A stretch of 59,436 nucleotides of DNA from Candidatus Yanofskybacteria bacterium RIFCSPHIGHO2_01_FULL_41_21 (GCA_001794025.1 MGJA01000013.1:1-59436), one strand, 5' to 3'. Counted from the stretch's first letter, positions 3,464 through 33,769 are shown. Numbers and translations: made by a program. Notes: a model not told the origin generated them from the sequence alone.

Positions 3464-3516
3464 ATTGATGACGCCGTTCCTCTGACCAGTCCAGACTCCT
3501 AGTTGGTAACTTTTGT

Positions 3517-6783: not shown

Positions 6784-6848
6784 GTTTTTGTTTAGGTTAT
6801 TTAAATAGTTATTTCCGCTTAAGTCTCAGTTTAATTAAAATCGTTAAC

Positions 6849-7238
6849 TTATTTCTTGCTCTTTTTCTCTTTCTCTTTTCGTGTTTGCATACCGGCCAAA
6901 CGTAGGAATAGTTCAACTTCTTTTGATTCTCCTTTTGCTGAGGCAGTTTCATAGAGTGCCCCAATCACATCCGGAACCCTTTCTTTAATCCATGCCGAAA
7001 TCTTTGATTGGAGCAAAAGTGGAAATTGGGGGTGTCTTTTCCAATCAGTTAAAGTATCCTCGCTCACTCCGATTAATTCCGCTAAATCTTTTTGGAATTT
7101 AGGTTCTCTTAGATATTGTGGAGTAGCTATCCATTCAATAAACCTAAGGAAGCCACCAAGATCCTTTATCCCACTAATTACAGGGTAATCGGAATGAATC
7201 GCTATGGATTTTATGATTTTGCTTGTAGTCATAGTCAT
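6849..7238 (-). CDS. Small HTH protein, second terminase small subunit-like/phage DNA-binding protein
   Basis: HTH LAELIGVSEDTLTDWKRH, basic C-terminal tail; first gene of the minus-strand phage block. Confidence 0.4.
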   Translation of the reverse strand: MTMTTSKIIKSIAIHSDYPVISGIKDLGGFLRFIEWIATPQYLREPKFQKDLAELIGVSEDTLTDWKRHPQFPLLLQSKISAWIKERVPDVIGALYETASAKGESKEVELFLRLAGMQTRKEKEKKSKK

Positions 7239-7849
7239 ATGGTTATTATTGGTTTATATTCGACCGTACAACGAAAACACCAACCGCAGTGGTTGGTGTT
7301 GGTGCATGAGAAAAACAGGCAGAGATACTTAACGAATGCAACAACATCAACCAGTTTTGGTTGTATTGTTACCTTCGTCAAAGACCCCTTAATCAGAAAT
7401 TTAAATTTCTGTTCGGCAACCTCCTATGACTCATAGAGCGGAATAAACGCTCAGTCGTGTATCTCTACACGCGTAAGGCAATATGTATTTTCGACGTACT
7501 ACACATACCTTAGTACATAGAGAGACAAATGCAATAGAAGTAGGTGGATAACACATTTGGTTCAACAGACTGCCAAAGGAGGCGCAAATTGAACTGTTGG
7601 TAAGCCCCCTTCGCAACCGTCCTTATTTAAGCTTGAATGGACGCCAGGTCGATATTTTGTTAGAATACCCTTAACAATTCAGCCTAAACCCATCAAGAAT
7701 CCTTGGCGGGCATGGCACAAAATCGTTAGGTACATTAAACCCGTCAGAGGGCGTACCTAACGTTATACAGGGAAACTTGTATATGCGACCGAAAGGTTGC
7801 ACCTGTGGCGGGTTTTGTGTTTCTTGCCACCTAAATCCATCCAAGGAGT

Positions 7850-8158
7850 ATGAATGATAAAAATTTAATTTGCGGCAGTTGCGGACACACTAATCCCGCA
7901 AAGAGGGTTACCCGAGGTACTTTCCTTGCGGAAATTACCCTTTGGGTCACAGCCCTCTTTCTACTTTTTGCGATACCATTTATTGGCGGTGTTTTAATCG
8001 TCATAGCGATTGTCTATTCGGTCTGGCGACTCCTCTCTCGAAGAACTAAATGTCAATATTGCGGGAATACAAACCTTATCCCGATTAATAGTCCTATCGG
8101 GAAGAAATTACTTGAAAAATTAGAGAACGGGAAAGAAAGCGAAAAAGGAAATATATAA
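7850..8158 (+). CDS. Zinc-ribbon membrane protein
   Basis: CGSCGH ... CQYCGN Cys pairs flanking two hydrophobic helices; RBS AAGGAG upstream. Confidence 0.5.
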   Translation: MNDKNLICGSCGHTNPAKRVTRGTFLAEITLWVTALFLLFAIPFIGGVLIVIAIVYSVWRLLSRRTKCQYCGNTNLIPINSPIGKKLLEKLENGKESEKGNI

Positions 8159-8173
8159 TTTTCCACCCAACCT

Positions 8174-9247
8174 ATGGCAATCATCATTTCAAAAAACGGC
8201 AAGAACGCCGTTCGGATAGATAAGTCGACCTTCGATAAGGAGGACTATCTACAAAAGTATATTTACGATAATCCCGAGAGTATTCCTCTCTACGACATAA
8301 AAGAAGATATCCGGCTCCTAATTTTGGCTCGTGAATTTCCGACCAACAGTGGCCCGATTGATGCCATCGGCATAGACAAGGAAGGAGAGATATACATTAT
8401 TGAAACCAAACTATATAAGAACCCTGATAAAAGAACTGTTGTTGCTCAAGCCTTGGATTATGGCGCCGCCCTCTGGAAGCACTCAAGCAACTTTAACGAG
8501 TTTATTGCCATCCTAAACGAGAACGTCCAAAAAACATTCAGAGTTCCCCTTAATCAAAAACTCCAAGAATACTTCGGCCTATCAGAGGAAGAGCTAAACC
8601 AACAGTTGGATTTGGTGAAGAATAACTTAAGTGATGGCATTCTGCATTTTGTCATTCTAATGGACAATCTCGATGATCGGCTCAAAGACCTCATTCTCTA
8701 CGTTAACCAAAACAGTCAGTTTGATATCTACGCCGTTGAGCTTGAATACTATAAACACGATACCTATGAGATAATCATCCCTCGCATTTATGGGGCAGAA
8801 GTTAAAAAAGATATAGCCGTCAGTTCATCATCTTCCTTGCGTACGTCCTGGAATGAGGAGAAGCTTTTGAATCAGGCCAAAGAACTTCTGACCGACGAGA
8901 TATATACAAACTTTAAGAAGATTTATGACTTCTCCAAAGAATACGCTGATGAAGTCCGTCTTGGGACCGGACAAAATGGCTCCTTTAATCCTATCTGGCA
9001 TTCAGTGAGAGATAAATCGCTTTTTAGTCTATATGCAAACGGTCGGATGGGTATAAACTTTCATTGGCTTGTAAACGATGATAAATCTAATCTGGCAATC
9101 ATTGATAATTTTAAGAAAAAGCTTCAAGGAATAGGGTTTGAAATTCCTGATAACTATACCGAAGTAAGACCTGGCTATGATCCCGAAATATGGAGTCCCC
9201 GAACCGACCAATTCATTCAGGCAGTTAAGGATGTGGTGGCAAAATGA
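8174..9247 (+). CDS. PD-(D/E)xK nuclease-fold protein (NucS/DUF91-like N-terminus) with uncharacterised C-terminal domain
   Basis: Motif GPIDAIGIDKEGEIYIIETK (D ... E-x-K) in the N-terminal third; 15 nt after the Zn-ribbon gene. Confidence 0.5.
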   Translation: MAIIISKNGKNAVRIDKSTFDKEDYLQKYIYDNPESIPLYDIKEDIRLLILAREFPTNSGPIDAIGIDKEGEIYIIETKLYKNPDKRTVVAQALDYGAALWKHSSNFNEFIAILNENVQKTFRVPLNQKLQEYFGLSEEELNQQLDLVKNNLSDGILHFVILMDNLDDRLKDLILYVNQNSQFDIYAVELEYYKHDTYEIIIPRIYGAEVKKDIAVSSSSSLRTSWNEEKLLNQAKELLTDEIYTNFKKIYDFSKEYADEVRLGTGQNGSFNPIWHSVRDKSLFSLYANGRMGINFHWLVNDDKSNLAIIDNFKKKLQGIGFEIPDNYTEVRPGYDPEIWSPRTDQFIQAVKDVVAK

Positions 9248-9261
9248 TACTAAATACCCAA

Positions 9262-9296
9262 GCACAAAACGGCTAAAATCAGCCGTTTTGTGCTTT
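9262..9296 (+). terminator. Rho-independent terminator
   Basis: 13-bp stem GCACAAAACGGCT / AGCCGTTTTGTGC followed by TTT. Confidence 0.7.
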
Positions 9297-9335
9297 ACGA
9301 GAGGGCAAAATAGGGCTAAACTTAAGGAATAAACT

Positions 9336-12300
9336 ATGTCTCAACACGCTACCTCATATATTGCTGAAGTTTCTGAAAAATACAAAACCGGCCGTGCCGG
9401 CGAACATGCCTATCGACCTACTTTTGAGAAACTTGTTAAGACAATAGACAAAACTATTGGGATTATTAATGATCCAAAACGCACAGAATATGGCGCTCCA
9501 GACTTTATATTCGTAAAAGGTGAGCTAATAGCTGGTTACGCCGAGACTAAGGATATAGACGTAGATTTAGACAAGACTGTAAAATCCGAACAATTGGAGC
9601 GTTATTTCGGCTACTCCAATTTAATACTTACAAACTATCTCGAATTTAGATTTTTTAGAAATGGATCGTTATGCGGTGAGCCTATTGTTATAGGAAAAAT
9701 CGATGGTGACACGGTCAAAATTATTGACGAATCCGCAGGTACTTTAGAAAATGCCATTAAAGATTTTCTTATTTCTCAGCCGGAAGCGATCAAGAGTGGT
9801 GTTCGTTTAGCGAAAATTATGGGTGGTAAGGCTCGTCGTATTCGTGACAATGTTAAACAATTTCTCACTAAAGAATCTGATGAGAACAAAGAGCTTGGAA
9901 AGATTTATGGTACTATCCAACAACTTTTAGTTCATGATCTCGACCCGAGTTCCTTTGCTGACATGTACGCGCAGACACTTGTTTATGGTCTATTTGTGGC
10001 TCGTTACCACGACGACTCACCGGAAAATTTTTCTCGTAGAGAAGCCGGAGATCTTATTCCTGCTTCTAACCCTTTTTTGAGACATTTTTTCGACCACATA
10101 GCAGGAATAAACTTTGATCAGCGACTCGCGTATATAGTAAATGAGTTGTGCGAAATATTTCGGGTTGCCGATGTCCAGAAGTTGATGAGCGAATATTATG
10201 AGAAAAATCTTTTTGGCGAAGAAATTAAAGGACCCGATCCAGTAATCCATTTTTATGAAGATTTTCTTAAAGAATACGATCCTGTTTTACGAAAGAAAAT
10301 GGGTGCCTATTATACACCGCTACCGGTGGTCAGATTTATTGTCAAAACTGTTGACGACATCCTACGAATAAATTTTAAGCTAGCGGACGGACTCGCCGAT
10401 ACTTCAAAATTATCAAATGGCCTCCATCGTGTTCAGGTTTTAGATCCAGCCGTTGGTACGGGTACATTTATCAGTGCTGTTATTAGAAAAATTTACGAGC
10501 TCTTCGTAAGGACAAAACAGGAAGGTCGTTGGCCGACATATGTTCATCACGATCTTTTACCGCGCATTTATGGTTTTGAGTTAATGATGGCTTCGTATAC
10601 GATTGCCCACTTAAAATTAAGTATAGAGTTCTCAAAAACAAAATTTAAACACTTTAACAAGCGACTTGGAATATATCTAACAAATTCACTTGAAGAAATC
10701 GTAGATCAAAAAAGCCTATTCTCTGGATTTGGTCTTGCCGAGAGTATAACCGAAGAAGCAAAAGAAGCCGCTATTATAAAAAGCGAGAGGCCGATAATGG
10801 TAGTTGTCGGTAATCCTCCGTATTCGGGGGTATCAAGCAATACATTTTACACTGGACACGGTGTATACAAAACTGAACCGACCGGAGGAAAATTAAAAGA
10901 AAGAAACTCTAAATGGCTCAACGATGACTATGTTAAATTTATACGCCTTGCGGAAAGTATGGTTGAAAAAACTGGCGAAGGAATTGTGGCCATGATTACC
11001 GCTCACGGGTATATAGATAATCCAACTTTTCGTGGCATGCGGTTTCACTTAATGAAAACATTTGATGAGATATATGTGCTTGATTTACACGGTAATGCCA
11101 ACAAGGAAGAAAAAGCATCAAATGGCGATGATGATAAAAATGTTTTTGATATAAAAACTGGAGTAGCCATTTTTATTGGCATTAAAAATAAAAAAAGTAA
11201 AGATGGAATTGCCAGAGTGTCTTGTGCTGATTGTTTCGGTAGCAGGTCATCTAAATTCGAATTTCTGAATAGCAACTCCTTCAGTTCTATTAAGTGGAAG
11301 GATATTAATCCTTCTGCACCTAATTATGAATGGGTTGTTCGTGATACAAAAACGCAAGGAGAATATCAAAAAGGATTCTCTGTTAATGAGTTATTTTTAA
11401 AGTCTAGTGTTGGCATTGTTACTGCTCGTGACGAAATGTCTATACGGCTTACGAGAGGTGAGGTTGAGGAAGTGATTCAAGACTTTCAAAATCTGGATGA
11501 AGAAACATTAAGAAGTAAATATGATTTAGGAAAAGATGCACAGGATTGGAAGGTCTCATGGGCTAAAAAAGATATACTAGAAAATTTTGATAACAACAAA
11601 ATAGTGCCAATTTCTTATCGGCCCTTTGATGTTCGCTGGACTTGCTATACAGGTACATCAAGAGGATTTCATGTTCGACCCAGAAGTGAAGTTATGGCTC
11701 ATATGACAAAAGACAACCTAGCTTTAATTGTCCTCAGGCAAGTTAAGGCTGGTAAAAGTTTCCAACATATTTTTGTATCAAAAAATATTACTGAATCAAC
11801 CCTGGTTTCTAATAAGACAAGTGAGATAGGCTACGTATTGCCACTCTATAATTATGATCATAGCGATAAGCTCCCCAATTTAGATAAAAAGATTATTGCC
11901 GATTTCGAAATAATCGTGGGTAAAGTTTTGTCCGAAGATATTTTTGACTACATCTATGCGGTCCTTCATTCGCCGAGCTATCGTGAAAAATATAAAGAGT
12001 TTTTAAAAATTGATTTTCCAAGAATACCATATCCAAAAGACAAAGAAACTTTCAAAAAACTAGTCGCTTTCGGCAAAGAATTACGGCTACTCCATTTACT
12101 CGAATCTCCTAAGATTAATCAATCCGTCATTTCATACCCAGAGGATGGCTCGAATATAGTAGATAAAATATCCTATACAGATAGTAGAGTATTTATTAAT
12201 GCCACACAGTATTTTGGCAACGTGCCGGAAATTGCTTGGCAGTTTTGGATTGGCGGCTATCAACCAGCTCAAAAATGGCTTAAGGATCGCAAGGGCCGAG

Positions 12301-12401
12301 CTTTAACCAATGAAGATATCGAGCACTATCAAAAGATAGTCGTTGCGCTAGTTGAAACGGATTTGGTCATGAAAGAGATCGATAAATATCTAAAACCATG
12401 A
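9336..12401 (+). CDS. Fused restriction-modification enzyme: type IIG / helicase-less type ISP-like (PD-ExK nuclease + gamma-class N6-adenine methyltransferase + specificity domain)
   Basis: N-terminal GAPDF...GYAETK (PD...ExK). Methyltransferase motifs AYYTP, LDPAVGTGTF and NPPY (VVGNPPYSG). C-terminal type-ISP-like block YIYAVLHSPSYREKYKEFLKIDFPRIPYP. No Walker A or helicase motifs. Confidence 0.8.
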   Translation: MSQHATSYIAEVSEKYKTGRAGEHAYRPTFEKLVKTIDKTIGIINDPKRTEYGAPDFIFVKGELIAGYAETKDIDVDLDKTVKSEQLERYFGYSNLILTNYLEFRFFRNGSLCGEPIVIGKIDGDTVKIIDESAGTLENAIKDFLISQPEAIKSGVRLAKIMGGKARRIRDNVKQFLTKESDENKELGKIYGTIQQLLVHDLDPSSFADMYAQTLVYGLFVARYHDDSPENFSRREAGDLIPASNPFLRHFFDHIAGINFDQRLAYIVNELCEIFRVADVQKLMSEYYEKNLFGEEIKGPDPVIHFYEDFLKEYDPVLRKKMGAYYTPLPVVRFIVKTVDDILRINFKLADGLADTSKLSNGLHRVQVLDPAVGTGTFISAVIRKIYELFVRTKQEGRWPTYVHHDLLPRIYGFELMMASYTIAHLKLSIEFSKTKFKHFNKRLGIYLTNSLEEIVDQKSLFSGFGLAESITEEAKEAAIIKSERPIMVVVGNPPYSGVSSNTFYTGHGVYKTEPTGGKLKERNSKWLNDDYVKFIRLAESMVEKTGEGIVAMITAHGYIDNPTFRGMRFHLMKTFDEIYVLDLHGNANKEEKASNGDDDKNVFDIKTGVAIFIGIKNKKSKDGIARVSCADCFGSRSSKFEFLNSNSFSSIKWKDINPSAPNYEWVVRDTKTQGEYQKGFSVNELFLKSSVGIVTARDEMSIRLTRGEVEEVIQDFQNLDEETLRSKYDLGKDAQDWKVSWAKKDILENFDNNKIVPISYRPFDVRWTCYTGTSRGFHVRPRSEVMAHMTKDNLALIVLRQVKAGKSFQHIFVSKNITESTLVSNKTSEIGYVLPLYNYDHSDKLPNLDKKIIADFEIIVGKVLSEDIFDYIYAVLHSPSYREKYKEFLKIDFPRIPYPKDKETFKKLVAFGKELRLLHLLESPKINQSVISYPEDGSNIVDKISYTDSRVFINATQYFGNVPEIAWQFWIGGYQPAQKWLKDRKGRALTNEDIEHYQKIVVALVETDLVMKEIDKYLKP

Positions 12402-12916
12402 ATCTAGTTGAATTAATATGGCCACTACTATTACTAATCGTGTTTATTGTCGGCGGCATGTTTGTTTTTCAGATACTTTTTAAAAAATCTTCCAACAAAC
12501 CAGATCTTTCAGTTTACGAAAGGAAGCTATACTTATTTGACACAACCTCGGAATTCAATTTGTATAAAGTATTGTTGGAACTTTTTGGTGATAAGTATTT
12601 CGTTTTTCCTCAAGTTAATTACAGTCATTTAATACAGCCCAGAAAATCAACTTGGGAAGACGAGAGAAAACACAGAAGCCGTATTGATAGAAAGTCAGCC
12701 GACTTTGTTTTATGTGATAAAGAACGAATTGTCCCGCAATTAATCATTGAGCTGGATGGAGGGGTACATAATTTTAAGAGTAAGCAAGTCAGAGATGAAT
12801 TTATAGACGAGCTTACCAAAATTGTAGATCTTCCAATCCTTCACCTGAAGCCTGGTAGCCTAGATAAGGAATTTGTTAAGAACGAAATCAATAAAAAACT
12901 AAACAAAAATTATTAA
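12398..12916 (+). CDS. DUF2726-like (PD-(D/E)xK/Vsr-fold) protein with N-terminal TM helix
   Basis: SADFVLCDKE...IIELDGGVH...DLPILHL; start overlaps the R-M stop (ATGA). Confidence 0.6.
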   Translation: MNLVELIWPLLLLIVFIVGGMFVFQILFKKSSNKPDLSVYERKLYLFDTTSEFNLYKVLLELFGDKYFVFPQVNYSHLIQPRKSTWEDERKHRSRIDRKSADFVLCDKERIVPQLIIELDGGVHNFKSKQVRDEFIDELTKIVDLPILHLKPGSLDKEFVKNEINKKLNKNY

Positions 12917-12918
12917 GT

Positions 12919-13557
12919 ATGGAAGATATTAGTTTAGAAAATCTTAATAAAACCACCGATCCTGTTTTACAAGAGCAACAGGGGTATCCTTTAGATACGG
13001 ATTCTGATCTGGTTGAAAAAAGGCCAGAATTATTTACAAAAATTAAGAAAAAAACAATTAAGGTAGTATCCCTTTATTTACAATTGCTATGGAATGCAAA
13101 TCCGAACGGTAAAACAATAAATGTAATGGATTTAATACTGAACTCGCAAACTCTTTTTGGTACAAAATTTGAAACAAAAGATCGTTTTACAATACGGCAC
13201 ATAGCATCAGATCTCAGGGAAATTTACATATTTATGGATCCGACGAGTTTAAAAAAATGGTATAAAAATATCGATACTGAGAGACCAGATATTTCATCGA
13301 GAATTGACTTGAGCAGGGAAATAAAGAACTTTCTTAGTGAAATCGTCCATCTTAACTATCGTTCAAGTCATGAAGCAGTAAAAAAAGTTTCAAAATTAGT
13401 TAAAGACTTAGACAAAGAAGATCTTGATATACCAGATCAATTTGATAGATATATTGACCACAAAACTTTTGAAGATAGTTTTGATGCGATTTGTGTGATT
13501 TTTATATTTAATTTTTATAAAATATTTGCAGAATTTCTCTACGATGAGGGGACATAA
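12919..13557 (+). CDS. Hypothetical protein (212 aa)
   Basis: Long ORF 2 nt after the previous stop; no motif recognised. Confidence 0.5.
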   Translation: MEDISLENLNKTTDPVLQEQQGYPLDTDSDLVEKRPELFTKIKKKTIKVVSLYLQLLWNANPNGKTINVMDLILNSQTLFGTKFETKDRFTIRHIASDLREIYIFMDPTSLKKWYKNIDTERPDISSRIDLSREIKNFLSEIVHLNYRSSHEAVKKVSKLVKDLDKEDLDIPDQFDRYIDHKTFEDSFDAICVIFIFNFYKIFAEFLYDEGT

Positions 13558-13561
13558 AAAT

Positions 13562-16528
13562 ATGAACCAACTTGAACTACACAAAAAAATAGAAGAATTT
13601 ATTAAAGCAGGAACTGTGTCTGCGGATATTAAAGTTGCCCAAGAATTGATTAAAAACGAGGACGCTAAGCGGTTCTTCTTCTCCCAAACAGATGAGAGTT
13701 GGCTTAATTGGCTTTGGCAGAAAGGTTTTCTCGACGGAGTAAAAAGTAAAATGAAAGATTCTACCACATACTCAAACAGCATGGCGGAGCTTGATTATCT
13801 AACGAAAGTTGCAGGAAAAGAACCAGCCAAGGTTTCGGAAATTATTAATTCTATAAAAATTTCCGAAGTGAACTTTAATCCAGAAGTTGTTGGTCGCTTC
13901 TTATGGATTATTAGCGAACTTCCAGCAGAACAAATCAAGACACTTACAGCAAAAATTAAGGATGAGAAGTGGATTTATTTAATGCGGGGTTTTCGTAAAT
14001 CTGGTTATGAATTTGAAAAGATTATTAAGAAGCTTGTTGAGAAAAAAGAAAGTAGTGCGATTTTGGAGTTGGCCCAAAGCTTGCTTATTGTAAAAAGTAA
14101 AACAGAAATCTTGGAGAAAGAAAGTAGCTTCAGTATTGATGATCCATTCTATGTTAGTGATTTAGATGCGTCTGGTGTTTTTGAGGCTTTAGTCGACATT
14201 GCTGATTCTCACAAAGAAATGGCGCTACAGATTACAACTGGCATAATGGCAGAAATTATAAAATTGGCTGAGCCAGATGAGAGTAAGGTTTTTGATTATC
14301 GAGATCCATTTGCTCTATATGATGTTGATTTCTTTACTCTTGAAATTGAAAACAAGGGTAGTTCCTCATATAGAGAAGATGTTAAAAACCTTGCGGCAAC
14401 TATTAAACAGTTAATTAATAGAACGATTGGCAAGAAACTCAGTAATACCGATGATATAAAACGGTTATTTGGCTATACTGATAAATTACCCTCATCTCGT
14501 TCGATGTGGCGCTTGAGATTATTTGCCCTATCTCGGTGCCCGGAGATATTCAAAAAAGAGTTACGAGATGCATTTTTCAAAGTTTTTGAAGTTGGTGAAA
14601 GATATTTTGAGATTGAAGGAGGGGCCGAATATAATCAGGCACTTATACTTTGTTTTAGTTTCTTAAATCCAGAAACAGATCAGAGGGAATACGTTAAGAA
14701 AATCTTTGAATATTTTGGTGCTGTACTTGAAGATAAAGATAAGGAAGGGTGGAGAAAAAGAGATGGTCTAGAAAAGCTTAGCTTTATAAAAGAATACCTC
14801 ACTCCCGATGAGAAAGAAGAGGCCAAGAAAATATTCAATAAGTATCCAGATGAAATTAATGTTATACCTGAGCCGACAATCGGCAAAATGCATGTTGGCT
14901 CTGTTTCTCACAGATCTCCAGTAAATCTTGATGACTATACAATTGAACAAATTGCTGAAAATCTAAAATCGGAATGGACTCCAGAGAAGCTAAATGAACA
15001 ATTCAAAAACGATGATTTCTTTCAACCTAGGGGGGTTGAGGGTCTCGGCGATGCCTTAAAAGAAAATATTAAAAAGCGAACAAATGAATATCTAAAAAAT
15101 ATTAACTCATTCTTTGATAAGAATAAAGTTCATCCGCATTATGTTTATTCGCTTCTACGAGGTATTGAGGAAATGCTTCGTAATGATAAGAATTCCTTTG
15201 ATGTACCACAGATAGGACAAATTCTAAATTTATTTAACACAATTAAGACAGAAGGAATACGAGAACCATTCAAGCGGAAAGATGATAAATCGTGGCTACC
15301 TGATTGGATAACAGTCCACAAAGTATTAACGGATGTACTGCTTCTTATTCTAGAAAATAAAGAAAGAAAAGAAGAGATTCATAAGGAATACAAGGAAAGA
15401 TTCCGAGAGCTGATTTCTTACTTGTTTACTATTAAAGATAGTCCAGCGAAAGAGGATGAAAAGCCTGAATATGGCGAGCTATACGGCGTAGCGATTAATT
15501 CTGTCCGCGGGCGAGCTTATGAGGCATTCGTTGTGCTTACTGAAAATGATGGAAAAACACTTACCGATGACACCAAGGAACTTTACAAAAAGACACTTCT
15601 TGATGATTCTCTTGCAGTTCGGTTTGTTATTGGTCGTTATCTAGCATCATTCTATTTCCGCGATAAAGAATTTATAATTGGTCTACTTCCAGAAATCTTT
15701 CCAAAAGATGATCTAGTAAAAAAAGATATATATTTAGCGTCTTGGGAGGGTTATCTGTCGAATACCTTATACGATAAATTATTTGCTAAACTTAAAGTTT
15801 ACTATAGCCATGCAATCACGCTTGATCCCAAAGACTATACACAAAGAAAATATTTCAAGGGTCTTGATGAGTCTTTGGCAATTCATGTTGCACTTTCTTT
15901 TGCCCATCTCGGATTAGAGATAGTCGATCCTCTATTTGTAGAGTTTTGGAATAAGCCAAATATAAAGCGTCATCAGGAATTTATATCATTTATTGGTCGC
16001 AGTTGTTTGACGAGAGATCAGGCAGGAGATGAGTGGCTAGCAGAAAACAAAGTTAGCAAAGAAAAACTCTTTAAGTTTTGGGATTGGGCATTGGAAAATT
16101 GTCCGAAACTTGTTGAGCCGGAAGCTCTGGCAGGTTTCGGTTTTTGGGTAAATCCGAATAAAGAAGTCTTAGTCGATATAGACGTAATTGATAGAATGGC
16201 AAAAACCCTTAGAAAGTCGGACGGGAATATTGATTGGGATTATGGGCTAATGAGACGATTACCAATTTTTGCCGAAAAAAATGGAGATAAAACATTAGAG
16301 ATTATATCAAATTTCTTATTGGACTTAAAAGGTAACCTAAACCAAAACCGCCGAGCACCCTTATTTAGTATTGACGGCGAGATTAAGCAGTCACTCGAGA
16401 TTATATATAAGAATGGAGATGTAACCTTAAAAGAAAAAGTTGTTGGACTAATAAATAATCTTATCGAAAAAGGAAGTAGTATGTTTTGGGGCTTAAAAGA
16501 TGTGATAAAAGAAGACAAGATGCTATAA
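13562..16528 (+). CDS. Large all-alpha, repeat-like hypothetical protein (~990 aa)
   Basis: Uninterrupted 3 kb ORF (ORF track start 13526; ATG at 13562 follows the upstream stop). Helix-rich composition. No Walker, nuclease, TIR or SIR2 motifs seen. Confidence 0.6.
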   Translation: MNQLELHKKIEEFIKAGTVSADIKVAQELIKNEDAKRFFFSQTDESWLNWLWQKGFLDGVKSKMKDSTTYSNSMAELDYLTKVAGKEPAKVSEIINSIKISEVNFNPEVVGRFLWIISELPAEQIKTLTAKIKDEKWIYLMRGFRKSGYEFEKIIKKLVEKKESSAILELAQSLLIVKSKTEILEKESSFSIDDPFYVSDLDASGVFEALVDIADSHKEMALQITTGIMAEIIKLAEPDESKVFDYRDPFALYDVDFFTLEIENKGSSSYREDVKNLAATIKQLINRTIGKKLSNTDDIKRLFGYTDKLPSSRSMWRLRLFALSRCPEIFKKELRDAFFKVFEVGERYFEIEGGAEYNQALILCFSFLNPETDQREYVKKIFEYFGAVLEDKDKEGWRKRDGLEKLSFIKEYLTPDEKEEAKKIFNKYPDEINVIPEPTIGKMHVGSVSHRSPVNLDDYTIEQIAENLKSEWTPEKLNEQFKNDDFFQPRGVEGLGDALKENIKKRTNEYLKNINSFFDKNKVHPHYVYSLLRGIEEMLRNDKNSFDVPQIGQILNLFNTIKTEGIREPFKRKDDKSWLPDWITVHKVLTDVLLLILENKERKEEIHKEYKERFRELISYLFTIKDSPAKEDEKPEYGELYGVAINSVRGRAYEAFVVLTENDGKTLTDDTKELYKKTLLDDSLAVRFVIGRYLASFYFRDKEFIIGLLPEIFPKDDLVKKDIYLASWEGYLSNTLYDKLFAKLKVYYSHAITLDPKDYTQRKYFKGLDESLAIHVALSFAHLGLEIVDPLFVEFWNKPNIKRHQEFISFIGRSCLTRDQAGDEWLAENKVSKEKLFKFWDWALENCPKLVEPEALAGFGFWVNPNKEVLVDIDVIDRMAKTLRKSDGNIDWDYGLMRRLPIFAEKNGDKTLEIISNFLLDLKGNLNQNRRAPLFSIDGEIKQSLEIIYKNGDVTLKEKVVGLINNLIEKGSSMFWGLKDVIKEDKML

Positions 16529-16529
16529 A

Positions 16530-17303
16530 ATGAAATTTTTAACAGATTATGAGGACAAATTGACAGAGGTAGCAAAAAAAGAAGGACTTATCTGTCTCGA
16601 TGATTTCGAAGTTTTAAACTTTGATGGTAAGAACGCACTGGCCTTCCTTGAGCTGATTTCAAAGACCAGACTTTCATTAAATACTCTTGGAAATATTGAT
16701 CTTCTGACACATGATTTGATTAATTCGATATCACCAGATATTAAATTTTCTCTAGCTAATATTTACTTATATTTTCCGAGCGCCAATAACTTTCTCAAGG
16801 AAATTAAACATATGAATGGCCAGGATGTCCCTACTTATAACAGGACCTTATCCGATAGAAGATTCTTTTATTATATAAATGTGGCTTTTGAAAAACTCTA
16901 TAATTTTTGGGATAGGGTTGGCGATACCCTTGCAATGGCTTTCAAGCTAGAAATACCCGAAAAGGAAATATTCTTCGGTGGAGTTATAGACAAACTTTGT
17001 ACTCTCGGTATAGAGTCTGAAGAGCTACAATGGTTAAAAAAGTTCAAAGATTCTGATTACTCTACTTTTCTTAACCGTCTTAGAATTAAGATAGTTCACT
17101 ATAGACAGAAAGATAGTTACTTTTTTATGGAGTGGGTCAACAGTTTTACAAATACTGAACCTGGTAATATTGAACTTTTAGTGCAACTTCAAAAAGAAAA
17201 AGAAGAACTACCCGTGCTACTCAAGGAACAATTTAAATTAACAAATATTGGTTTCGAAAAAATGGTAAAGTTAATTCACTTTCATGGCCCCTATGAAAAG
17301 TAG
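16530..17303 (+). CDS. Predicted HEPN-domain protein (Rx4H motif)
   Basis: RIKIVH (R-x4-H) in LNRLRIKIVHYRQK within the helical C-terminal half; 1 nt after the upstream stop. Confidence 0.5.
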   Translation: MKFLTDYEDKLTEVAKKEGLICLDDFEVLNFDGKNALAFLELISKTRLSLNTLGNIDLLTHDLINSISPDIKFSLANIYLYFPSANNFLKEIKHMNGQDVPTYNRTLSDRRFFYYINVAFEKLYNFWDRVGDTLAMAFKLEIPEKEIFFGGVIDKLCTLGIESEELQWLKKFKDSDYSTFLNRLRIKIVHYRQKDSYFFMEWVNSFTNTEPGNIELLVQLQKEKEELPVLLKEQFKLTNIGFEKMVKLIHFHGPYEK

Positions 17304-17323
17304 TCTTCAATTTTAGTTAAAGA

Positions 17324-17620
17324 ATGAAAATAGAATCAAAACAACAAATTCTCAAACGGCGGAAAGAGATTGAGCAAGAGCTCGTGGATATGCTCAAGGA
17401 GACCAAGAGCGATTTTACCTTGGATCATGTTCGGGATGCTATTTTCCACGAGGAAGATAACGACGACATGATGAAAGTCGTGGCCATGTTTGATCGTGGT
17501 GGAGATGCTTCCGAGCTGGAGAATATCCTTGAATTAGTGACCGACGCATGGAATTACTTTCCACACAAATGCTTAAGCGGCCTTTGCCCAATGGAAAAAA
17601 TCGGAGTAGTATCACAATGA
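17324..17620 (+). CDS. Small acidic hypothetical protein (98 aa)
   Basis: ORF 20 nt downstream of the HEPN-like gene; no motif recognised. Confidence 0.4.
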
Positions 17621-17636
17621 ATATATAATAAACTCA

Positions 17637-18467
17637 ATGATTAATCGTATTCTCAAACCACTCATTTATACCCTCGCCGTAATGGCAATTTTAGGTGTTG
17701 GAATTTGGATTGGCGGAAGCAGAGATAACAATTCTTCGATTACAGAGGAAACACAACAAGTCGCAAATACTGAAGATAATACTAATGGCGGGGTTTTAAA
17801 CGAAAATGGACAACCCCAACCGATTCAACCGCCAGATACTAGCTCAACTCGTCTTGTCAAAGTAACGAGAGTAGTAGACGGCGACACAATTGAAATAGAA
17901 GGCGGGGAAAAGGTTAGATATATCGGGATTGATACACCGGAGACCGTTGACCCACGCAAACCCGTACAGTGTTTCGGAGTAGAAGCGTCTAAGAAAAATA
18001 AGGAGATGGTTGAAGGTAAAATGGTGCGATTAGAAAAAGATATTACAGACAAAGACAAATATAACCGACTTTTGCGATATATCTGGCTGGACAATGTTTC
18101 TATAAATCTGGAATTGATAAAACAAGGTTTTGCTTACTCATATTCCTACCCTCCTGATATAAAGTATCAAGACCAATTTTTAAAAGCTCAGCAAGAGGCA
18201 CGCGAGGCAAAAAGAGGATTGTGGAACGCCTGCCCAACAGTTCAGGAGCAAACTGTCACGCCATCGATTTCTCCAGCGTTAACTCCAAAAAACAGTTTCT
18301 GTTTAATCAAGGGGAACATAAGCACTTCTGGTGAAAAAATCTACCATTTGTCAGGGTGTGGTTCTTACGCTAAAACAACAATAGATGAAGCTCGGGGCGA
18401 ACGTTGGTTTTGTACTGAATCTGAAGCCCAAGCCGCCGGCTGGCGCAAAGCACTTAATTGTCCGTAG
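17637..18467 (+). CDS. Membrane-anchored thermonuclease (SNase family) with C-terminal Cys-containing domain
   Basis: N-terminal TM helix; VVDGDTIEI...[10 protein letters not shown] SNase motifs; C-terminal [15 protein letters not shown]...[15 protein letters not shown] module. Confidence 0.8.
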
Positions 18468-18497
18468 GGGCAAAGTGAGACACGAGACATACTCTTT

Positions 18498-19544
18498 ATG
18501 AATCGAGCTATCATTGATGAAAAACTAAATAGAATCGCAAATCTGCTTGGCCTCACAAGAAAGCAGGTTGGTTTTACTATTTTAGCTATTATTGTCATTC
18601 TTGCTCTCGGCATCATCTACTCTACCACCTTCACCGCTCCCGATGGCAACGCCACTCAAGAAAACTTTACCGTAGGCACAAACGATGACTCCAGAGAGGT
18701 TGCTAACAACTTAGAGGAACAGGGCTTTGTAAAAAGTAGCTTAGCTTTCCGAATCGCATTCTCCGGTCCAAGCGGAGCTATTTCAAAATGTGTCGATTGT
18801 ATCCAATCGGGCGTTTACAGAATTTCCAAATCAATGAATGCTTGGGACATCGCCAGCATTTTAAAGAAAGAACCCAATATGAGATGGGTCACCATTCCCG
18901 AAGGATTAAGAAAAGAAGAAATAGCGGATATTCTGGCCGGAACTTTTAAGTGGAGTGGCGATGACAAGCAAAAATGGATTACAACATATACTGCTATGAA
19001 GTATGACTATATTGAAGGGGTATATTTCCCCGACACATATCTGATTCCCATAGATGAAACACCGCTTGAAATGGCAGACCGTCTACGAGCTCATTTTGAA
19101 GAAAAATTTGCTCCATACGCTAAAGAATCCTTGAATCAAAATATCAAATGGGCTACCGCACTTACCCTAGCGTCCATTGTACAGCGGGAAGCGGCTGGCA
19201 AAGATGACATGCCTCTTATCGCTGGAGTTCTGTGGAACCGATTGCTCAAGGGCCAGAAACTTGAAGTAGATGCAACTGTACAATATGCTCGTGGCAAAAC
19301 GGATATTGGTTGGTGGGCGCCTATAAAGCCAGCGGATAAGCAGATTGAGTCTCCCTACAATACATATATCAATAAGGGGTTACCACCTCACCCGATCAGC
19401 AACCCCGGAGTAGCTGCCATTAATGCCGTCCTTAACTCAACTGAAACAAAGTGCTTGTTTTATCTGCATGATAATTCTGGAGGTATTCATTGTTCTGAAA
19501 CTTATGAGGAGCACTTAGGGAATATTGAGACATATTTAAAATAG
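18498..19544 (+). CDS. mltG: Endolytic murein transglycosylase MltG (YceG family)
   Basis: N-terminal TM helix; EGVYFPDTY and ASIVQREA YceG motifs. Confidence 0.8.
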   Translation: MNRAIIDEKLNRIANLLGLTRKQVGFTILAIIVILALGIIYSTTFTAPDGNATQENFTVGTNDDSREVANNLEEQGFVKSSLAFRIAFSGPSGAISKCVDCIQSGVYRISKSMNAWDIASILKKEPNMRWVTIPEGLRKEEIADILAGTFKWSGDDKQKWITTYTAMKYDYIEGVYFPDTYLIPIDETPLEMADRLRAHFEEKFAPYAKESLNQNIKWATALTLASIVQREAAGKDDMPLIAGVLWNRLLKGQKLEVDATVQYARGKTDIGWWAPIKPADKQIESPYNTYINKGLPPHPISNPGVAAINAVLNSTETKCLFYLHDNSGGIHCSETYEEHLGNIETYLK

Positions 19545-19572
19545 TTAGGATCTACTTACTTTAATAATATTC

Positions 19573-19908
19573 ATGTCCGAAGAATTACCATCACCAAAGA
19601 AACAAGAATTACCAAATCAAGAACTGATTGATGCTTTGCGTTCTCATGGACCAGAAGACCCAACCACAAAAGCGATGTTAGGTTTGTGGGCACATGCCAC
19701 CGAACGAGAATTAAATGAGAGTACGGAATCAACTTCAAGAATTGAAATGAATATCCGACGTGGCAGGTTATTCTTTGCGGCCGGATATATCGATGAAGCC
19801 TATGAAAGTTTAAGCGCCGCCGCAACTCAAGCTGATAACGAGGGCAAACGGGAACTATATGATTCCATCATGGCCGAGATGGATCAAATGGACACTATGC
19901 TTGGGTAA
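19573..19908 (+). CDS. Hypothetical protein (111 aa)
   Basis: ORF followed by 10-bp-stem hairpin AATGGCACAC...GTGTGCCATT. Confidence 0.4.
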   Translation: MSEELPSPKKQELPNQELIDALRSHGPEDPTTKAMLGLWAHATERELNESTESTSRIEMNIRRGRLFFAAGYIDEAYESLSAAATQADNEGKRELYDSIMAEMDQMDTMLG

Positions 19909-20046
19909 ATGGCACACTCCAAATACCGCCTTTCCGTGTGCCATTTGTGCCATTTGCCCGAGTATCACCGACCTGTAGGCATCCAAATTCTGACCGCTGG
20001 AAAGCTCTTGAAACGCTTGTAAGGATTGGTGCCAGACCACTACGCG

Positions 20047-20084
20047 GAGCACTTCGACAAGCTCAGTGCAAGCTTTTATTAAAT
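20047..20084. repeat. 38-bp direct repeat, copy 1 (GAGCACTTCGACAAGCTCAGTGCAAGCTTTTATTAAAT)
   Basis: Identical to 22557-22594; related to CTTCGACAAGCTCAGG half-repeats at ~45925 and ~53306. Confidence 0.9.
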
Positions 20085-20117
20085 GTGGAAACTCTAGAAG
20101 GCCCAAAAAAGGGACCT

Positions 20118-20279
20118 GACTCCTTTTCCTTTCATGGCGACCCGAAAGGTATTGAACGAGACGATTTTGTAGATCGGGCCTTACGTGATGCCGGACTACC
20201 TATTTTGCACCAAAAAGTTCAGTATGCTTACAGCAATCAAGAATTAGGGAATAAGATCAGCCAGACATTAGATCATTAA
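20118..20279 (+). pseudogene. 3' fragment of a DUF2726-like gene
   Basis: ERDDFVDRALRDAGLPILH...ELGNKISQTL aligns with the C-terminus of the 12398-12916 product (VRDEFIDELTKIVDLPILH...FVKNEINKKL). The N-terminal two thirds are missing and the repeat sits directly upstream. Confidence 0.5.
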
Positions 20280-20590
20280 TAAACTCCCTTAATGTTATGC
20301 TTGGGATTGTATTTAGCAATTTCTTCTTTTTCAAATTCTTCAATCTCCTTAATATTATCTGTTTTGAAAATATGAAACCCAAAATGGGTTACATCATTCC
20401 ACTTGTTCTCGGTAAGGTGTTCTAATAATCGTTTGCGTATTCCTCCACCACTAACCGCCTTGCCAATATAAAAAATCCTCAGTTGATTTTCAGGTGTTTT
20501 AGCTCCTATATAATATACACCAACAGCAGTTGAGTTCCACTCCCGAATAATCTTTTCACTGTAAACGTAGGGTCCTTTAAATGGTTCCAT
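20276..20590 (-). CDS. GIY-YIG domain protein
   Basis: GVYYIG...FYIGKA...RKRLLEH pattern. Confidence 0.6.
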   Translation of the reverse strand: MEPFKGPYVYSEKIIREWNSTAVGVYYIGAKTPENQLRIFYIGKAVSGGGIRKRLLEHLTENKWNDVTHFGFHIFKTDNIKEIEEFEKEEIAKYNPKHNIKGVY

Positions 20591-20632
20591 AAATAATGTG
20601 TTCTTTAATATTATAATCTTATTTTTTAAAAA

Positions 20633-20962
20633 CTACGACACAGGACTCTCCATATTGCCCTGCATATATTCTACGACAATGTTTATAATTTTTTTAACCT
20701 CTGTACTGCAATTTTTAAATGTAAGCCTATCTATAACATCGGGCCCGAACTTTCTAATGGCCTCACTAATTAACGCATGTGTAAAAGATTGAGTTGTATT
20801 ACTGACCCCATCATAATCAAAAATAAGATCAAAACCATTTTTTAAATTTGGAAATACAAATTTCTCTCTCAATGAGCGCGCGATATCTTTATTTTCAGCA
20901 AAAGTTCCAGTACGTTCCAGCATCTTTATTGCTATTGTTTTTTTCTTTTTCATTTTATTCAA
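20633..20962 (-). CDS. STAS-like (DUF4325-type) protein
   Basis: Size and sequence pattern ...FDYDGV...TQSFTHALISE; 8-nt overlap with the upstream GHKL gene. Confidence 0.5.
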   Translation of the reverse strand: MNKMKKKKTIAIKMLERTGTFAENKDIARSLREKFVFPNLKNGFDLIFDYDGVSNTTQSFTHALISEAIRKFGPDVIDRLTFKNCSTEVKKIINIVVEYMQGNMESPVS

Positions 20963-21962
20963 ATTTTGGTCTTTTGTAACGAGCTTTTTTCTGCCCCCTC
21001 ACTTCTTTAGAGTAAAAGTCATGAATATTATCTAATAAAGATGAAAATTCGGTAGTTTTTTCCAAGGATATATCTACACCTACAGCAACTCCAGTCCAAA
21101 AGGGAATAGAAATTATAGAGTGCCTATCTTTAAATGGATCACCACTAAGTTTAAAAGAGCTCTTCTTTTTTTGTAAAAGTTTATACATTTTATCACCGCT
21201 CATAATGTTAAAAAAATTGCCCCCAGTATACGCAATGGATTTTATTAAGAATAGACCGAATCCAGCGTTTTGTGCGGTACCGCCAGGCTTTGACGTTGTG
21301 CCAGTAACTCCCGGAGTAAGAGCAAGATTTATTGCCTCTATCGAATCTTTAACAGGATATGATTGACTCAAAGATTTTTGTAAACCGATTCCCATGTCCG
21401 CAACACCGATAGAGATTTTGTTTGTTTTTTTAAAATACTGTGCACAAACAACCGCTCCATCACTTGATCTTGAGTGTTCTAAGACATTTCTAATAAGTTC
21501 ACTGAATATATGCTGTATTGATTTAACATGTTTAGGATCATTATCAAAATGAAGGAGGGGTACTAAATCTTTTAAAAAATAATCTAAATCATTCGAGTTT
21601 TTTACTTGCGTCAGGGGTATAAAGCGTCCGGCTGGCTCATGCTCCACTATCTCTTTTACTCCTGGATTTATCCCCATGAATTCAAAAAGCTTCATTCTTT
21701 TAAGGTAATGTCCTGATGGTGCAGCTATCAACTCACAGGTGATTTTATCAGCTGGAATATTTTTACCCAATATTCCAATTATGCACAGAATAAGTGGGTG
21801 AACTGAAATCCATTTAGGATTTGCCGTTATTTTTAAAAAATCGGGATTATCTAATTTAAGAGTTGATAAAAACCCATTTATATTTCCCAAGAACGCACTG
21901 TTTGGTATATGTACCTCCATTTGTTTAAAATACCGGGAATCCTGGTAAAATGCAAGGGGCAT
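20955..21962 (-). CDS. GHKL (histidine kinase-like) ATPase, SpoIIAB/anti-sigma-like
   Basis: N box ELIRNVLEHS, G1 VADMGIGL, G2 GTAQNAGFGLFL. Confidence 0.65.
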   Translation of the reverse strand: MPLAFYQDSRYFKQMEVHIPNSAFLGNINGFLSTLKLDNPDFLKITANPKWISVHPLILCIIGILGKNIPADKITCELIAAPSGHYLKRMKLFEFMGINPGVKEIVEHEPAGRFIPLTQVKNSNDLDYFLKDLVPLLHFDNDPKHVKSIQHIFSELIRNVLEHSRSSDGAVVCAQYFKKTNKISIGVADMGIGLQKSLSQSYPVKDSIEAINLALTPGVTGTTSKPGGTAQNAGFGLFLIKSIAYTGGNFFNIMSGDKMYKLLQKKKSSFKLSGDPFKDRHSIISIPFWTGVAVGVDISLEKTTEFSSLLDNIHDFYSKEVRGQKKARYKRPKFE

Positions 21963-22025
21963 TAATATTTTTTTAGATGTGTTATAATGGTTTCAACATT
22001 GAACCAAACCGCCAACCAATAACTT

Positions 22026-22526
22026 ATGACAGAAAATGAAAAGAAAATCTCGGATCATCATGATAACGTAATAAGACTTGAGGTTCAATCAGAACAGATT
22101 ATCGATGATTATAAATATATTAGAGATAAGATTGAACGAGAAATCGTTTACTTAAAAACGTCTTGGGATAGGGTAGTAGATATAAAGATTAGTAACTATG
22201 ACAAAATCATTGATTTAGAAATATTTTTTCTAAAACTTTTTATTCCTATTTTTGGTATTTCTTTTACCGCAGGAGCAAATATTATTGGTATCGATACTTA
22301 TACTTTAAAATGGCTATCTCTTTCGGTCATTGTTTTAGTAGGATTGCTTTTAGCTATTACTTTTATATTTCGAAAAATGATAGTTAATTCTGAACAAAAA
22401 AACCATGAACTAGAATATGGCTTGATAAGAAAGGAGCTTCTAAATAATGTGGAAAATTTACAAATTCGTACTAAGCAAATTGGAGAAAATGTAAAACTGG
22501 CCTTAGGTAATGAACCCGAGTTATAA
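22026..22526 (+). CDS. Membrane protein (coiled-coil N-terminus, 2-3 TM helices)
   Basis: Hydrophobic segments; divergent from the GHKL operon. Confidence 0.4.
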   Translation: MTENEKKISDHHDNVIRLEVQSEQIIDDYKYIRDKIEREIVYLKTSWDRVVDIKISNYDKIIDLEIFFLKLFIPIFGISFTAGANIIGIDTYTLKWLSLSVIVLVGLLLAITFIFRKMIVNSEQKNHELEYGLIRKELLNNVENLQIRTKQIGENVKLALGNEPEL

Positions 22527-22556
22527 TAAAGCTGTTCCAACATCAAACCAAGCGGT

Positions 22557-22594
22557 GAGCACTTCGACAAGCTCAGTGCAAGCTTTTATTAAAT
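22557..22594. repeat. 38-bp direct repeat, copy 2
   Basis: Identical to 20047-20084. Confidence 0.9.
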
Positions 22595-22610
22595 TTGGTA
22601 TGATGGGTTT

Positions 22611-22802
22611 ATGAATAAAAAGCGATTTTGGAAGATATTCATAATAGTATTTGTGATTGCATTTGTGGCTAATATTATGACGGCTTATTTTTGGAGCCGG
22701 GCTTTTCCGGATAGTTCGTGGAGTTGGGATGTATCTACTACTACAGCTGGAATGTTAGCTCTGATTATAGCTTATGTTCAGCGTCATGACGATAATAAGT
22801 AG
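22611..22802 (+). CDS. Small membrane protein (63 aa)
   Basis: Two hydrophobic helices. Confidence 0.4.
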   Translation: MNKKRFWKIFIIVFVIAFVANIMTAYFWSRAFPDSSWSWDVSTTTAGMLALIIAYVQRHDDNK

Positions 22803-22815
22803 GTTGGATTAATAT

Positions 22816-23076
22816 TTGGTAATGGTTATGAAGAATAAAATATCCACCGGTACAGTGCACAAAGTGTCGGTTGATTTAAGACAAGTTCTTACTTCTTCAT
22901 CGGCAGTGGTTGTTGCGTGGGAGGATATTACTCCGCTTGCACGTAATGAATGGATCTGTTGGATTGAATCAGCCAAGAAAAGGGAGACCAGGAAACACAG
23001 AATTGAAAGAACCCGCACGGGACTTATTGAAGGAAAGCGCCGGCCGTGTTGTTGGGCCGGTTGCCCTCATCGTTAA
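22816..23076 (+). CDS. YdeI/OmpD-associated family protein
   Basis: ITPLARNEWICWIESAKK.ETR..RI and C-terminal CCWAGCPHR motif. Confidence 0.6.
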   Translation: MVMVMKNKISTGTVHKVSVDLRQVLTSSSAVVVAWEDITPLARNEWICWIESAKKRETRKHRIERTRTGLIEGKRRPCCWAGCPHR

Positions 23077-23095
23077 TTAAGTATAGAATTAAACT

Positions 23096-23293
23096 ATGCA
23101 GAAAATAGCAACAAAAGTATTCGTCTGGGCATCTATTTCTTTCGCCATAATCGGGATGATTATGGTTTTGACGACTTCTGAAAACACCGGCCCAAATCCT
23201 ACCATGCTACGGTTTTTATTTGCGTCCGTTATCGTTATTTTGACCTCGTTTGCATTAAGTGTTGCCAGCAAGTATCTCAACGGCAAGTCCTAG
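23096..23293 (+). CDS. Small membrane protein (65 aa)
   Basis: Two TM helices. Confidence 0.4.
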   Translation: MQKIATKVFVWASISFAIIGMIMVLTTSENTGPNPTMLRFLFASVIVILTSFALSVASKYLNGKS

Positions 23294-23315
23294 TCATTTC
23301 TGAATTTCTAACGGG

Positions 23316-23489
23316 ATGAACAAAATTAAAATACTGTTTTATGTTATCGGAATATTATTCGGAGTGTTTATATTTATATATGGCGGGTATGACGATAGTC
23401 CCGGAGCGCAATTACTCGGGGGCTTGATAGTAATTGCCAGTATCGTGGGTATAATAAAAAGAAAGAAGAAAACACAGAACCAGACATAG
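23316..23489 (+). CDS. Small membrane protein (57 aa), below ORF-track cutoff
   Basis: ATG preceded by TTTCTAACGGG (same motif as at the 33424 and 44294 starts); two TM helices and basic tail. Confidence 0.35.
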   Translation: MNKIKILFYVIGILFGVFIFIYGGYDDSPGAQLLGGLIVIASIVGIIKRKKKTQNQT

Positions 23490-23785
23490 ATACTGGTTCT
23501 GATGCTAATTGGTAAAATAAATATTACAAAAACCCATGATTATTATATTGGGAATAATAGTAGTTGTGGTCTTAATTGTCATGGTGACTATGGCTGTCAT
23601 TAAAGATAATAAGTGAATTAACGAAAAGTGATTAAACAAGGGGTCAATTAACATAAGTTTCTAAGTAAAATTGTTTTTTATTTAGATATTATCCTTGTTA
23701 TTCAAGGGCGGTTGATATTATTTTTAATATAAGATATAACTCGGTTAGTTTGTTGACAAATGAACAAATAAACAAGGGGGTTGAA

Positions 23786-33534: not shown

Positions 33535-33769
33535 TACTCAATATTAATAAAAGAGCCAGTTCGACTCATACTAGCTCCATGTGACTAGATACGTAATGAC
33601 CTCTCTCCTTGTTTCAGCCCTTTTTACTGAAATAATTACAAAACATTTATTTTCTTTGACTACTTGACAGGTTTTTTACAAAAGAATACGGTGATATCAT
33701 AAATAAATCTTGTTGAAAAAATGTAGATTATTCGCCAATAATTTACAAATTCAACAGGAATCTCATACC

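Follow-up and report, generated by a model that had tools for sequence, protein, structure and literature searches.

A putative two-part DSR1-like module in an accessory slot beside a restriction-modification operon of Candidatus Yanofskybacteria

DSR2 comprises a SIR2 domain and a HEAT-like C-terminal domain that binds the phage tail tube protein. In DSR1 the C-terminal domain detects the phage, whereupon the N-terminal SIR2 domain is activated, and DSR1 works as a single protein (bioRxiv 10.1101/2024.02.11.579819). Toxins are also frequently linked to restriction-modification (R-M) genes, for which PrrC with EcoprrI provides the precedent (PMC3710099). The survey of Anantharaman in 2013 includes the Cthe_2314 family of HEPN proteins, which has a conserved Rx4-6H motif and for which genomic associations are given as 'none detected' (PMC3710099). 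Here we analyze four genes, termed A, B, C and D, on the + strand of a 59,436-nucleotide (nt) stretch of DNA from Candidatus Yanofskybacteria bacterium RIFCSPHIGHO2_01_FULL_41_21 (GCA_001794025.1 MGJA01000013.1:1-59436), the whole of which is called the window. The genes lie within 12919-17620. The original prediction, made from the sequence, was of an operon of four packed open reading frames (ORFs) in which a large helical sensor or scaffold (B) is paired with a HEPN effector (C) and two small accessory proteins (A and D), together forming an undescribed immunity module. ORF calling returned the same four packed frames with the same coordinates and spacing. We find that A and B form a conserved unit, and that they probably constitute a two-part DSR1-like defence module lying in a variable accessory slot 3' of an R-M operon.

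A (12919-13557, +) encodes an all-alpha protein of 212 amino acids (aa), the candidate effector and partner of B, and is followed after 4 nt by B (13562-16528, +), which encodes an alpha-solenoid protein of 988 aa that is the candidate sensor or regulator. The ORF of B opens at a TTG codon at 13526, and alignment of homologues sets the start at the ATG at 13562, where it is backed by the invariant residues M1, Q3 and H7. There are 274 detectable homologues of B, nearly all from metagenome-assembled genomes of Patescibacteria/Parcubacteria, with lengths that fall into two classes of ~980 aa and ~1150-1190 aa. We compared 49 loci from species-representative genomes with several more obtained by exact look-up, giving ~55 in total. 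The loci were sampled by peptide-pattern scans, and all counts of loci are lower bounds. Among the 49 genome loci, all those in which the N-terminus of B is visible, with the sole exception of L025, have either an abutting upstream gene or an N-terminal fusion. In the split form a 'head' gene of 180-374 aa lies upstream of B at a gap of -46 to +22 nt, and in the fused form B carries an N-terminal extension of 164-212 aa.

Taking split and fused forms together, 33 of 41 heads fall into one BLAST-linked family that contains A. An alignment of 34 heads shows no variation at Arg100 and His144 and almost none at Ala96 and Glu101 (numbered as in A), and these residues lie in the motifs [HQ]-x-A-x-[SD]-x-R-E and x-x-H-[H]. 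The best 120 homologues of B divide into 72 of split size and 43 of fused size, and the S-x-R-E and HH motifs are found in all 43 of the latter. Attempts to identify the long homologues as fusions of A and B by direct BLAST failed, and the link was recovered through intermediate head subfamilies and the shared motifs. The unity of the heads as a family is thus suggested by a chain of BLAST links together with two shared motifs. The occurrence of A and B in both split and fused form, a Rosetta-stone fusion, indicates that the two work together. A and B are co-inherited, and are translationally coupled or fused, as one unit. The distribution of the pair is patchy and its GC content low, and only 2 matches to the family were found among 2.9 million viral contigs.

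The relationship of B to DSR1 comes from profile comparison. B has no match in Pfam or NCBIfam, and no PDB chain matches it by sequence. The only library match is to the PADLOC model Dsr1, in which B 405-821 aligns with model positions 687-1081 of 1227 (E = 4.5e-18). The same model is matched by 8 of 20 homologues of B, the best at 7.8e-26. When the profile of B was compared with a 1302-aa SIR2 family protein from Bacillus thuringiensis using hhalign, positions 480-844 aligned with residues 831-1162 (96.4% probability, E = 1e-9), pairing the motif AINSVRGRAYEAF with ILNSVKGQALRAV, and FYFRDK with FYFLDK. Residues 480-844 are also the most conserved stretch of B. The N-terminal ~400 and the last ~140 residues have no match in DSR1. 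The profile alignments show homology between the C-terminal half of B and the C-terminal domain found in SIR2 proteins of the DSR1 type. The expectation that B could be mapped to nothing described was in this respect mistaken.

A tblastn search of plasmid sequences found the central and C-terminal region of B in the B. thuringiensis SIR2 protein, in haloarchaeal 'ATP-binding' proteins and in a Legionella protein. In the haloarchaeal plasmid proteins of ~1500 aa the module lies behind ATPase domains (L070 2427-6959), and the Legionella plasmid protein, of 789 aa, is flanked by insertion sequence elements (L071 4107-6476).

As had been foreseen, B is otherwise of a large, helical, non-enzymatic kind suited to a sensor or scaffold. 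There is no Walker A motif in any of A to D, and an AlphaFold model of the fused homologue P0007, which is 70% identical over the B part, is helical throughout (pLDDT 85.8, pTM 0.66). A Foldseek search of the PDB with this model brought up nothing but generic HEAT/ARM solenoids, among them CAND1 and karyopherins, at TM scores below 0.25. We therefore do not assign B to a specific solved fold.

A is more elusive. Nothing above threshold was found for it in Pfam, NCBIfam, PHROGs or PADLOC, a profile search of the PDB gave chance matches only, and tblastn against phage and plasmid collections gave no match. The AlphaFold model is confident only at residues 90-207, where it forms a helical bundle. 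Arg100, Glu101 and His144 are the putative active site. We asked if A might be a second HEPN protein. It contains RFTIRH at 89-94, in which R89 varies and the motif as a whole is not conserved, and Arg100 and His144 are 44 residues apart. Comparison of A with the C family by hhalign gave E = 0.43, and a marginal match to HEPN_AbiA_CTD (0.045) occurs in 1 of 34 heads. A is accordingly not assigned as a HEPN protein. A metal-independent, nuclease or RNase-like activity is the single most likely guess from these sequences, one that we hold with low confidence and at well short of even chances.

The head position can be occupied by other proteins. In 3 loci the head is a caspase-like CHAT protease: that of L021 matches PF12770 at 4.7e-8, and L008 and L033 have heads homologous to it. 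In 2 further loci there is another head without assigned identity. CHAT proteases are typical immune effectors, and the head is thus an exchangeable position able to hold a bona fide immune effector. It is tempting to suggest that the A-type head is a previously unrecognized all-alpha effector domain with an Arg-Glu...His active site, which replaces SIR2 on a sensor of the DSR1 type, and that in Patescibacteria head-B is one of several interchangeable cargoes of a dedicated slot between R-M operons and genes of the D family. We put this forward tentatively, as a rather unlikely extension of the two-part module. If it were true, HEPN genes, a PHP-ATPase and Cas4-like nucleases would be among the other cargoes, and the layers of restriction and abortive infection would be put together and swapped as a single transcription unit.

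We now consider the remaining two genes of the four. C (16530-17303, +) begins 1 nt after B and encodes a protein of 257 aa. It matches PF18730, the Cthe_2314-like HEPN family, with 45.6 bits against a cut-off of 27.1 (E = 9.8e-12), and the same family is found in 46 of 48 database homologues of C. The Rx4H motif RIKIVH lies at residues 185-190, and in an alignment of 24 sequences R185 and H190 are invariant, as is the motif FEKLYNFWDRxGD upstream of them. C is thus a genuine HEPN protein and a predicted RNase. The HEPN character with conserved Rx4H was correctly anticipated. C falls, however, into a family that already has a name.

D (17324-17620, +) starts 20 nt after C and encodes an acidic protein of 98 aa, with no match above threshold in Pfam, NCBIfam, PHROGs or PADLOC. 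It belongs to a widespread and very conserved family of small acidic proteins (281 representative clusters), the members of which are free-standing or sit as a C-terminal domain behind unrelated N-termini in proteins of ~300 aa.

Could all four genes, in this lineage at least, be a single system with B as the sensor, C as the effector RNase, and A and D in accessory or regulatory roles? The genes are separated by just 1-20 nt with no terminator in between, and the HEPN motif is intact. In addition, a C homologue with 56% identity in L072 (2108-5780) begins 1 nt after a 963-aa, defence-like protein that itself follows a type III Res gene, with a serine recombinase after the C homologue; this may be another arrangement of large protein plus HEPN, so C might be a plug-in effector for large sensors. 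The 963-aa protein is not a relative of B, as judged by BLASTP, and it bears a P-loop-like sequence, GLGFGKSS. Tight packing by itself is, however, weak evidence of shared function, since short gaps are general in this compact genome. And the distribution of the genes does not follow the four-gene arrangement. C is absent from the ~55 other B loci (BLASTP in 49 of them), including the close relatives L001, L055, L056, L057 and L076, and tblastn over L001-L060 found it only in loci that had been picked via C itself. Conversely, none of the 8 loci with C homologues (L050-L054 and L072-L074, in six distinct neighbourhoods) contains B or A. There the neighbours are a helix-turn-helix (HTH) gene and a small membrane protein (L050 and L053) or a GIY-YIG gene (L073).

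D behaves in a similar way. A metagenome scan gave 430 relatives of D at 83-88% identity, and among the 80 loci examined (L079-L158) none has A, B or C. Fused head-B proteins also stand alone in many loci. Of the other B loci D is found in one, L056, where it follows B (73% identical) by 3 nt with no C between, so that the window differs from L056 by an insertion of C between these two genes. The conserved partner of B is A and not the HEPN protein, and the four genes are not conserved as one module. We consider a four-gene system very unlikely. C seems rather to be a separate HEPN add-on that this lineage acquired between B and D, with no part in the mechanism of A-B. We also considered C and D as a toxin-antitoxin pair, and rejected this on the distribution and composition of D and the differing neighbours of C homologues; D has no nucleotidyltransferase match, and C is missing from the 80 D loci. 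What survives of the predicted undescribed immunity module is the A-B pair: neither A nor full-length B has a model in Pfam, NCBIfam 2026, PHROGs or PADLOC 2.0, and we found no paper describing the family. The part centred on the HEPN protein is lost with the exclusion of C and D.

The composition of D sets it apart. The GC content is 0.376 for the R-M gene upstream, 0.335 for the DUF2726 gene that follows it, 0.304 for A, 0.357 for B and 0.331 for C, and it rises to 0.434 in D, 0.421 in the nuclease gene downstream and 0.426 in the YceG gene beyond. D is thus grouped by composition with the downstream genes, at host-like GC, and the genes from R-M to C form an island of low GC (0.30-0.38). 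In L056 the DNA identity to the window is 89% for D and 72% for B. The genes upstream of D vary and often belong to R-M or defence systems: 23 of the 80 loci have co-oriented R-M genes there (Res, Eco57I-type or N6/N4 methylases), as do 13 of the 29 having the full 6 kb of upstream sequence. Downstream genes are host-like; 13 loci have a TspO-like membrane protein there, and 3 have the nuclease that is found in the window. In L082, a close relative, the R-M enzyme (68% identical), D (84%) and the nuclease (79%) correspond to those of the window, and between R-M and D there are two other genes (758-2160; 193 and 251 aa) with the Rx4H-type motifs RNASAH and RCGVVH that are candidate HEPN cargo. 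L082 and the distribution of D together point to a variable accessory slot between the R-M operon and D, which in the window holds DUF2726, A-B and C. D is apparently the marker of a hotspot for R-M-linked cargo; it is a conserved gene bounding the slot, and is not part of the A-B mechanism. A look-up of exact D sequences for an island-free allele gave 20 contigs, all with the same arrangement. No convincing att-like direct repeats flank the island, and there is no tRNA gene in the window.

The genes upstream of the pair provide a further clue. In the window they are a 1021-aa type IIG R-M fusion enzyme (9336-12401, +; Pfam Type_ISP_C 4.9e-88, N6_Mtase and Eco57I; PADLOC REase_MTase_IIG 7.1e-296) and a 172-aa DUF2726 protein (12398-12916, +; PF10881, 5.8e-20), the start of which overlaps the R-M stop codon and which ends 2 nt before A. 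In 22 loci (raw count) head-B is immediately preceded by R-M genes of the same orientation. They are of type III, with Mod and Res, in L002 (partial), L003, L007, L012, L038, L041, L055, L056 and L057. Eco57I-type IIG enzymes, or PLD-SNF2 with a methylase, are found in the window and in L004, L011, L018, L025, L029, L033, L040 and L076. The remainder are of type II, comprising L006 and L046 (DpnII), L024 (an EcoRI-like methylase with GmrSD/HNH) and L031 (HpaII). AbiE genes and serine recombinases are near head-B in several loci. The loci with transmembrane-helix heads tend to have the housekeeping genes TerC, FtsX and DnaX upstream.

This linkage raises the possibility that A-B is a guard in the manner of PrrC, which is held latent by the adjacent R-M enzyme or watches it, and is triggered once a phage knocks out restriction with an anti-restriction factor. 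The pair is immediately downstream of R-M operons and co-oriented with them, often overlapping or with gaps near zero, and both the precedent of PrrC-EcoprrI and the general linkage of toxins to R-M count in favor of a guard (PMC3710099). Yet the partner enzymes are of unrelated types (III, Eco57I-like IIG, DpnII, HpaII and EcoRI-like), and this makes a specific protein-protein guard unlikely. Moreover several loci, including those with transmembrane heads, have the housekeeping genes upstream instead, and DSR1 itself acts as a single protein (bioRxiv 10.1101/2024.02.11.579819). We therefore regard a guard as improbable, if less so than a four-gene system. A layered defence co-transcribed with R-M would fit the unrelated types of neighbour better.

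The two-part DSR1-like module would work in the following way. B would be a non-enzymatic solenoid, with its C-terminal module as the putative phage sensor as in DSR1. A would take the place of SIR2. The two proteins would form a complex, in which B keeps A silent until a phage-derived trigger binds B. A would then generate a toxic output through Arg100, Glu101 and His144, and the outcome would be growth arrest or abortive infection, backing up restriction.

A number of observations weigh against this scheme. Searching the PDB with the model of A using Foldseek gave no match below E = 0.6, so that A has no recognized fold or catalytic family. The best Pfam lead for the A family, and the sole hint of activity, is pP_pnuc_1 (PF18165, a predicted pPIWI-associated nuclease), which reached E = 0.011 in 4 of 34 heads and lies under the cut-off of 26.3 bits. 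Lacking a conserved Rx4-6H, A is not a canonical HEPN protein. Some heads have an N-terminal transmembrane helix, which would suit the role of a membrane effector or adaptor better than that of a nuclease. The subfamily of A itself is linked weakly to the fused heads by hhalign (A2 with A3, E = 0.1). B is strongly conserved and nearly free of indels, which is unusual for a phage-sensing surface. C is coupled to B by a gap of 1 nt, and a functional link specific to this lineage is possible. The R-M neighbours are of unrelated types, and their adjacency was counted without a null model and could reflect co-location in islands only. Lastly, the A-B family is known through sequences and models, from which the function of every member is deduced.

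Some of these points bear on an alternative in which A-B has no role in immunity. The pair might be cargo of a mobile element, engaged in maintenance or addiction or in the handling of nucleic acid or protein, or A might be an adaptor without toxicity. This is consistent with the want of a known enzymatic fold in A or B, with the strong conservation and few indels of B, and with the serine recombinase, ParB-methylase and terminase-like HTH gene that lie upstream in the window, and the similarity to DSR1 spans only ~365 residues. Against it, that region is homologous to the sensor domain of a validated defence protein, and the head has been exchanged for a CHAT protease. The placement beside R-M and Abi genes is persistent, and the distribution is patchy with low GC. 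We give a non-immune role little credence, about as little as a four-gene system, and favor the DSR1-like defence module.

The surroundings of the pair have the character of a defence island, as originally proposed, with an R-M operon, nuclease genes and a DSR1-related pair. Pfam, PADLOC and NCBIfam matches bear out the predicted neighbours, namely the R-M fusion, the coupled DUF2726 gene and the thermonuclease. The last is a staphylococcal-type nuclease (SNase; 17637-18467, +) located 16 nt after D. It has a hydrophobic segment at its N-terminus and a 'sunset' domain (NF051437) at its C-terminus, and the YceG gene follows it after 30 nt. A homologue of SNase directly follows the fused B homologue in L018. 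No DUF2726 homologue is present in the 49 B loci, and the gene is an accessory of the island in the window that is not conserved with A-B; in L149 a DUF2726 gene comes after a D homologue. A terminator scan of 7000-20500 gave 14 weak candidates, against 10.1 +/- 3.5 in shuffled sequences. Between 9336 and 18467 there is no intergenic terminator on the + strand, in agreement with the prediction that no terminator hairpin would be found there; the + strand candidates at 10316, 12223 and 13008 are all inside ORFs.

Further features of the window can be noted. At the head of the island is a gene for a 357-aa protein (8174-9247, +) that matches PADLOC PDC-S11 (E = 1.4e-19), with weak NucS/Cas4-like similarity, a nuclease of the PD-(D/E)XK type. 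Upstream there is a full-length match to the LOOT RNA, Rfam RF03000 (7681-7801, +; 77.2 bits, gathering threshold 46.4), located just before a 102-aa ORF (7850-8158) and the defence island. A large serine recombinase (2153-3463, -) is accompanied by a gene of 511 aa, a ParB-N6/N4 methylase fusion (5458-6783) and an HTH_Tnp_1_2 gene (6849-7238) that is terminase-like, and this set on the - strand (2153-7238) looks like the remnant of a mobile element or prophage. The same set flanks the C homologue in L051. There is a second stretch of low GC (0.34-0.37) at 20000-24000. The annotation precomputed for identical contigs places in it an HATPase_c protein (20955-21962, -) beside a DUF4325 gene, and the two may be another accessory or defence pair. 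Finally, an ORF of 1720 aa (33710-38872, +) lies in a stretch with a GC content of 0.47-0.50.

If the two-part module is as we suggest, the C-terminal domain of DSR1 would be a portable sensor platform that drives different effectors, often with the effector encoded by a separate gene, and A-B would supply a candidate effector domain. The sensor domain of DSR1 is poorly understood, and no PDB chain matches the sequence of B. Patescibacteria have tiny genomes, with few recognized defences beyond R-M. A second layer linked to R-M, within a slot bounded by D, would help to explain how they are protected. The intervals between R-M operons and D-family genes also offer a practical handle for mining further systems.

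How does the locus compare with known systems? In the survey no genomic associations of the Cthe_2314 family were detected, whereas the members encountered here lie at the ends of R-M-linked islands (in the window and L072) or beside serine recombinases. PrrC and RloC resemble A-B in providing a second line of defence encoded in or beside R-M operons (PMC3710099), the position of A-B in 22 loci. They differ in combining an N-terminal ABC-ATPase with a C-terminal HEPN domain; neither A nor B has a Walker A motif, an ABC or HEPN match or a conserved Rx4-6H. With Avs and other STAND proteins there is the similarity that the N-terminal effector of a large sensor is modular and becomes swapped, but B lacks the central nucleoside triphosphatase domain (NACHT or NB-ARC), having neither a P-loop nor a Pfam match. 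DSR2 offers an analogy, in that an alpha-solenoid sensor governs an N-terminal effector. There is no sequence match to DSR2, however, and it is absent from the top 50 Foldseek matches in the PDB for the fused model. The closest relative is DSR1. A and B contain no SIR2 or NADase domain detectable by Pfam, NCBIfam or PADLOC, and the head is instead an all-alpha domain, or CHAT in 3 loci. Effector and sensor, which form one polypeptide in DSR1, are split between A and B in the window, and the A-B family is found mainly in Patescibacteria, usually downstream of R-M operons. What is shared is the overall organization. DSR1 is a large protein in which an N-terminal effector is followed by a long helical region, and the fused relatives of B have the same layout of head and then solenoid.

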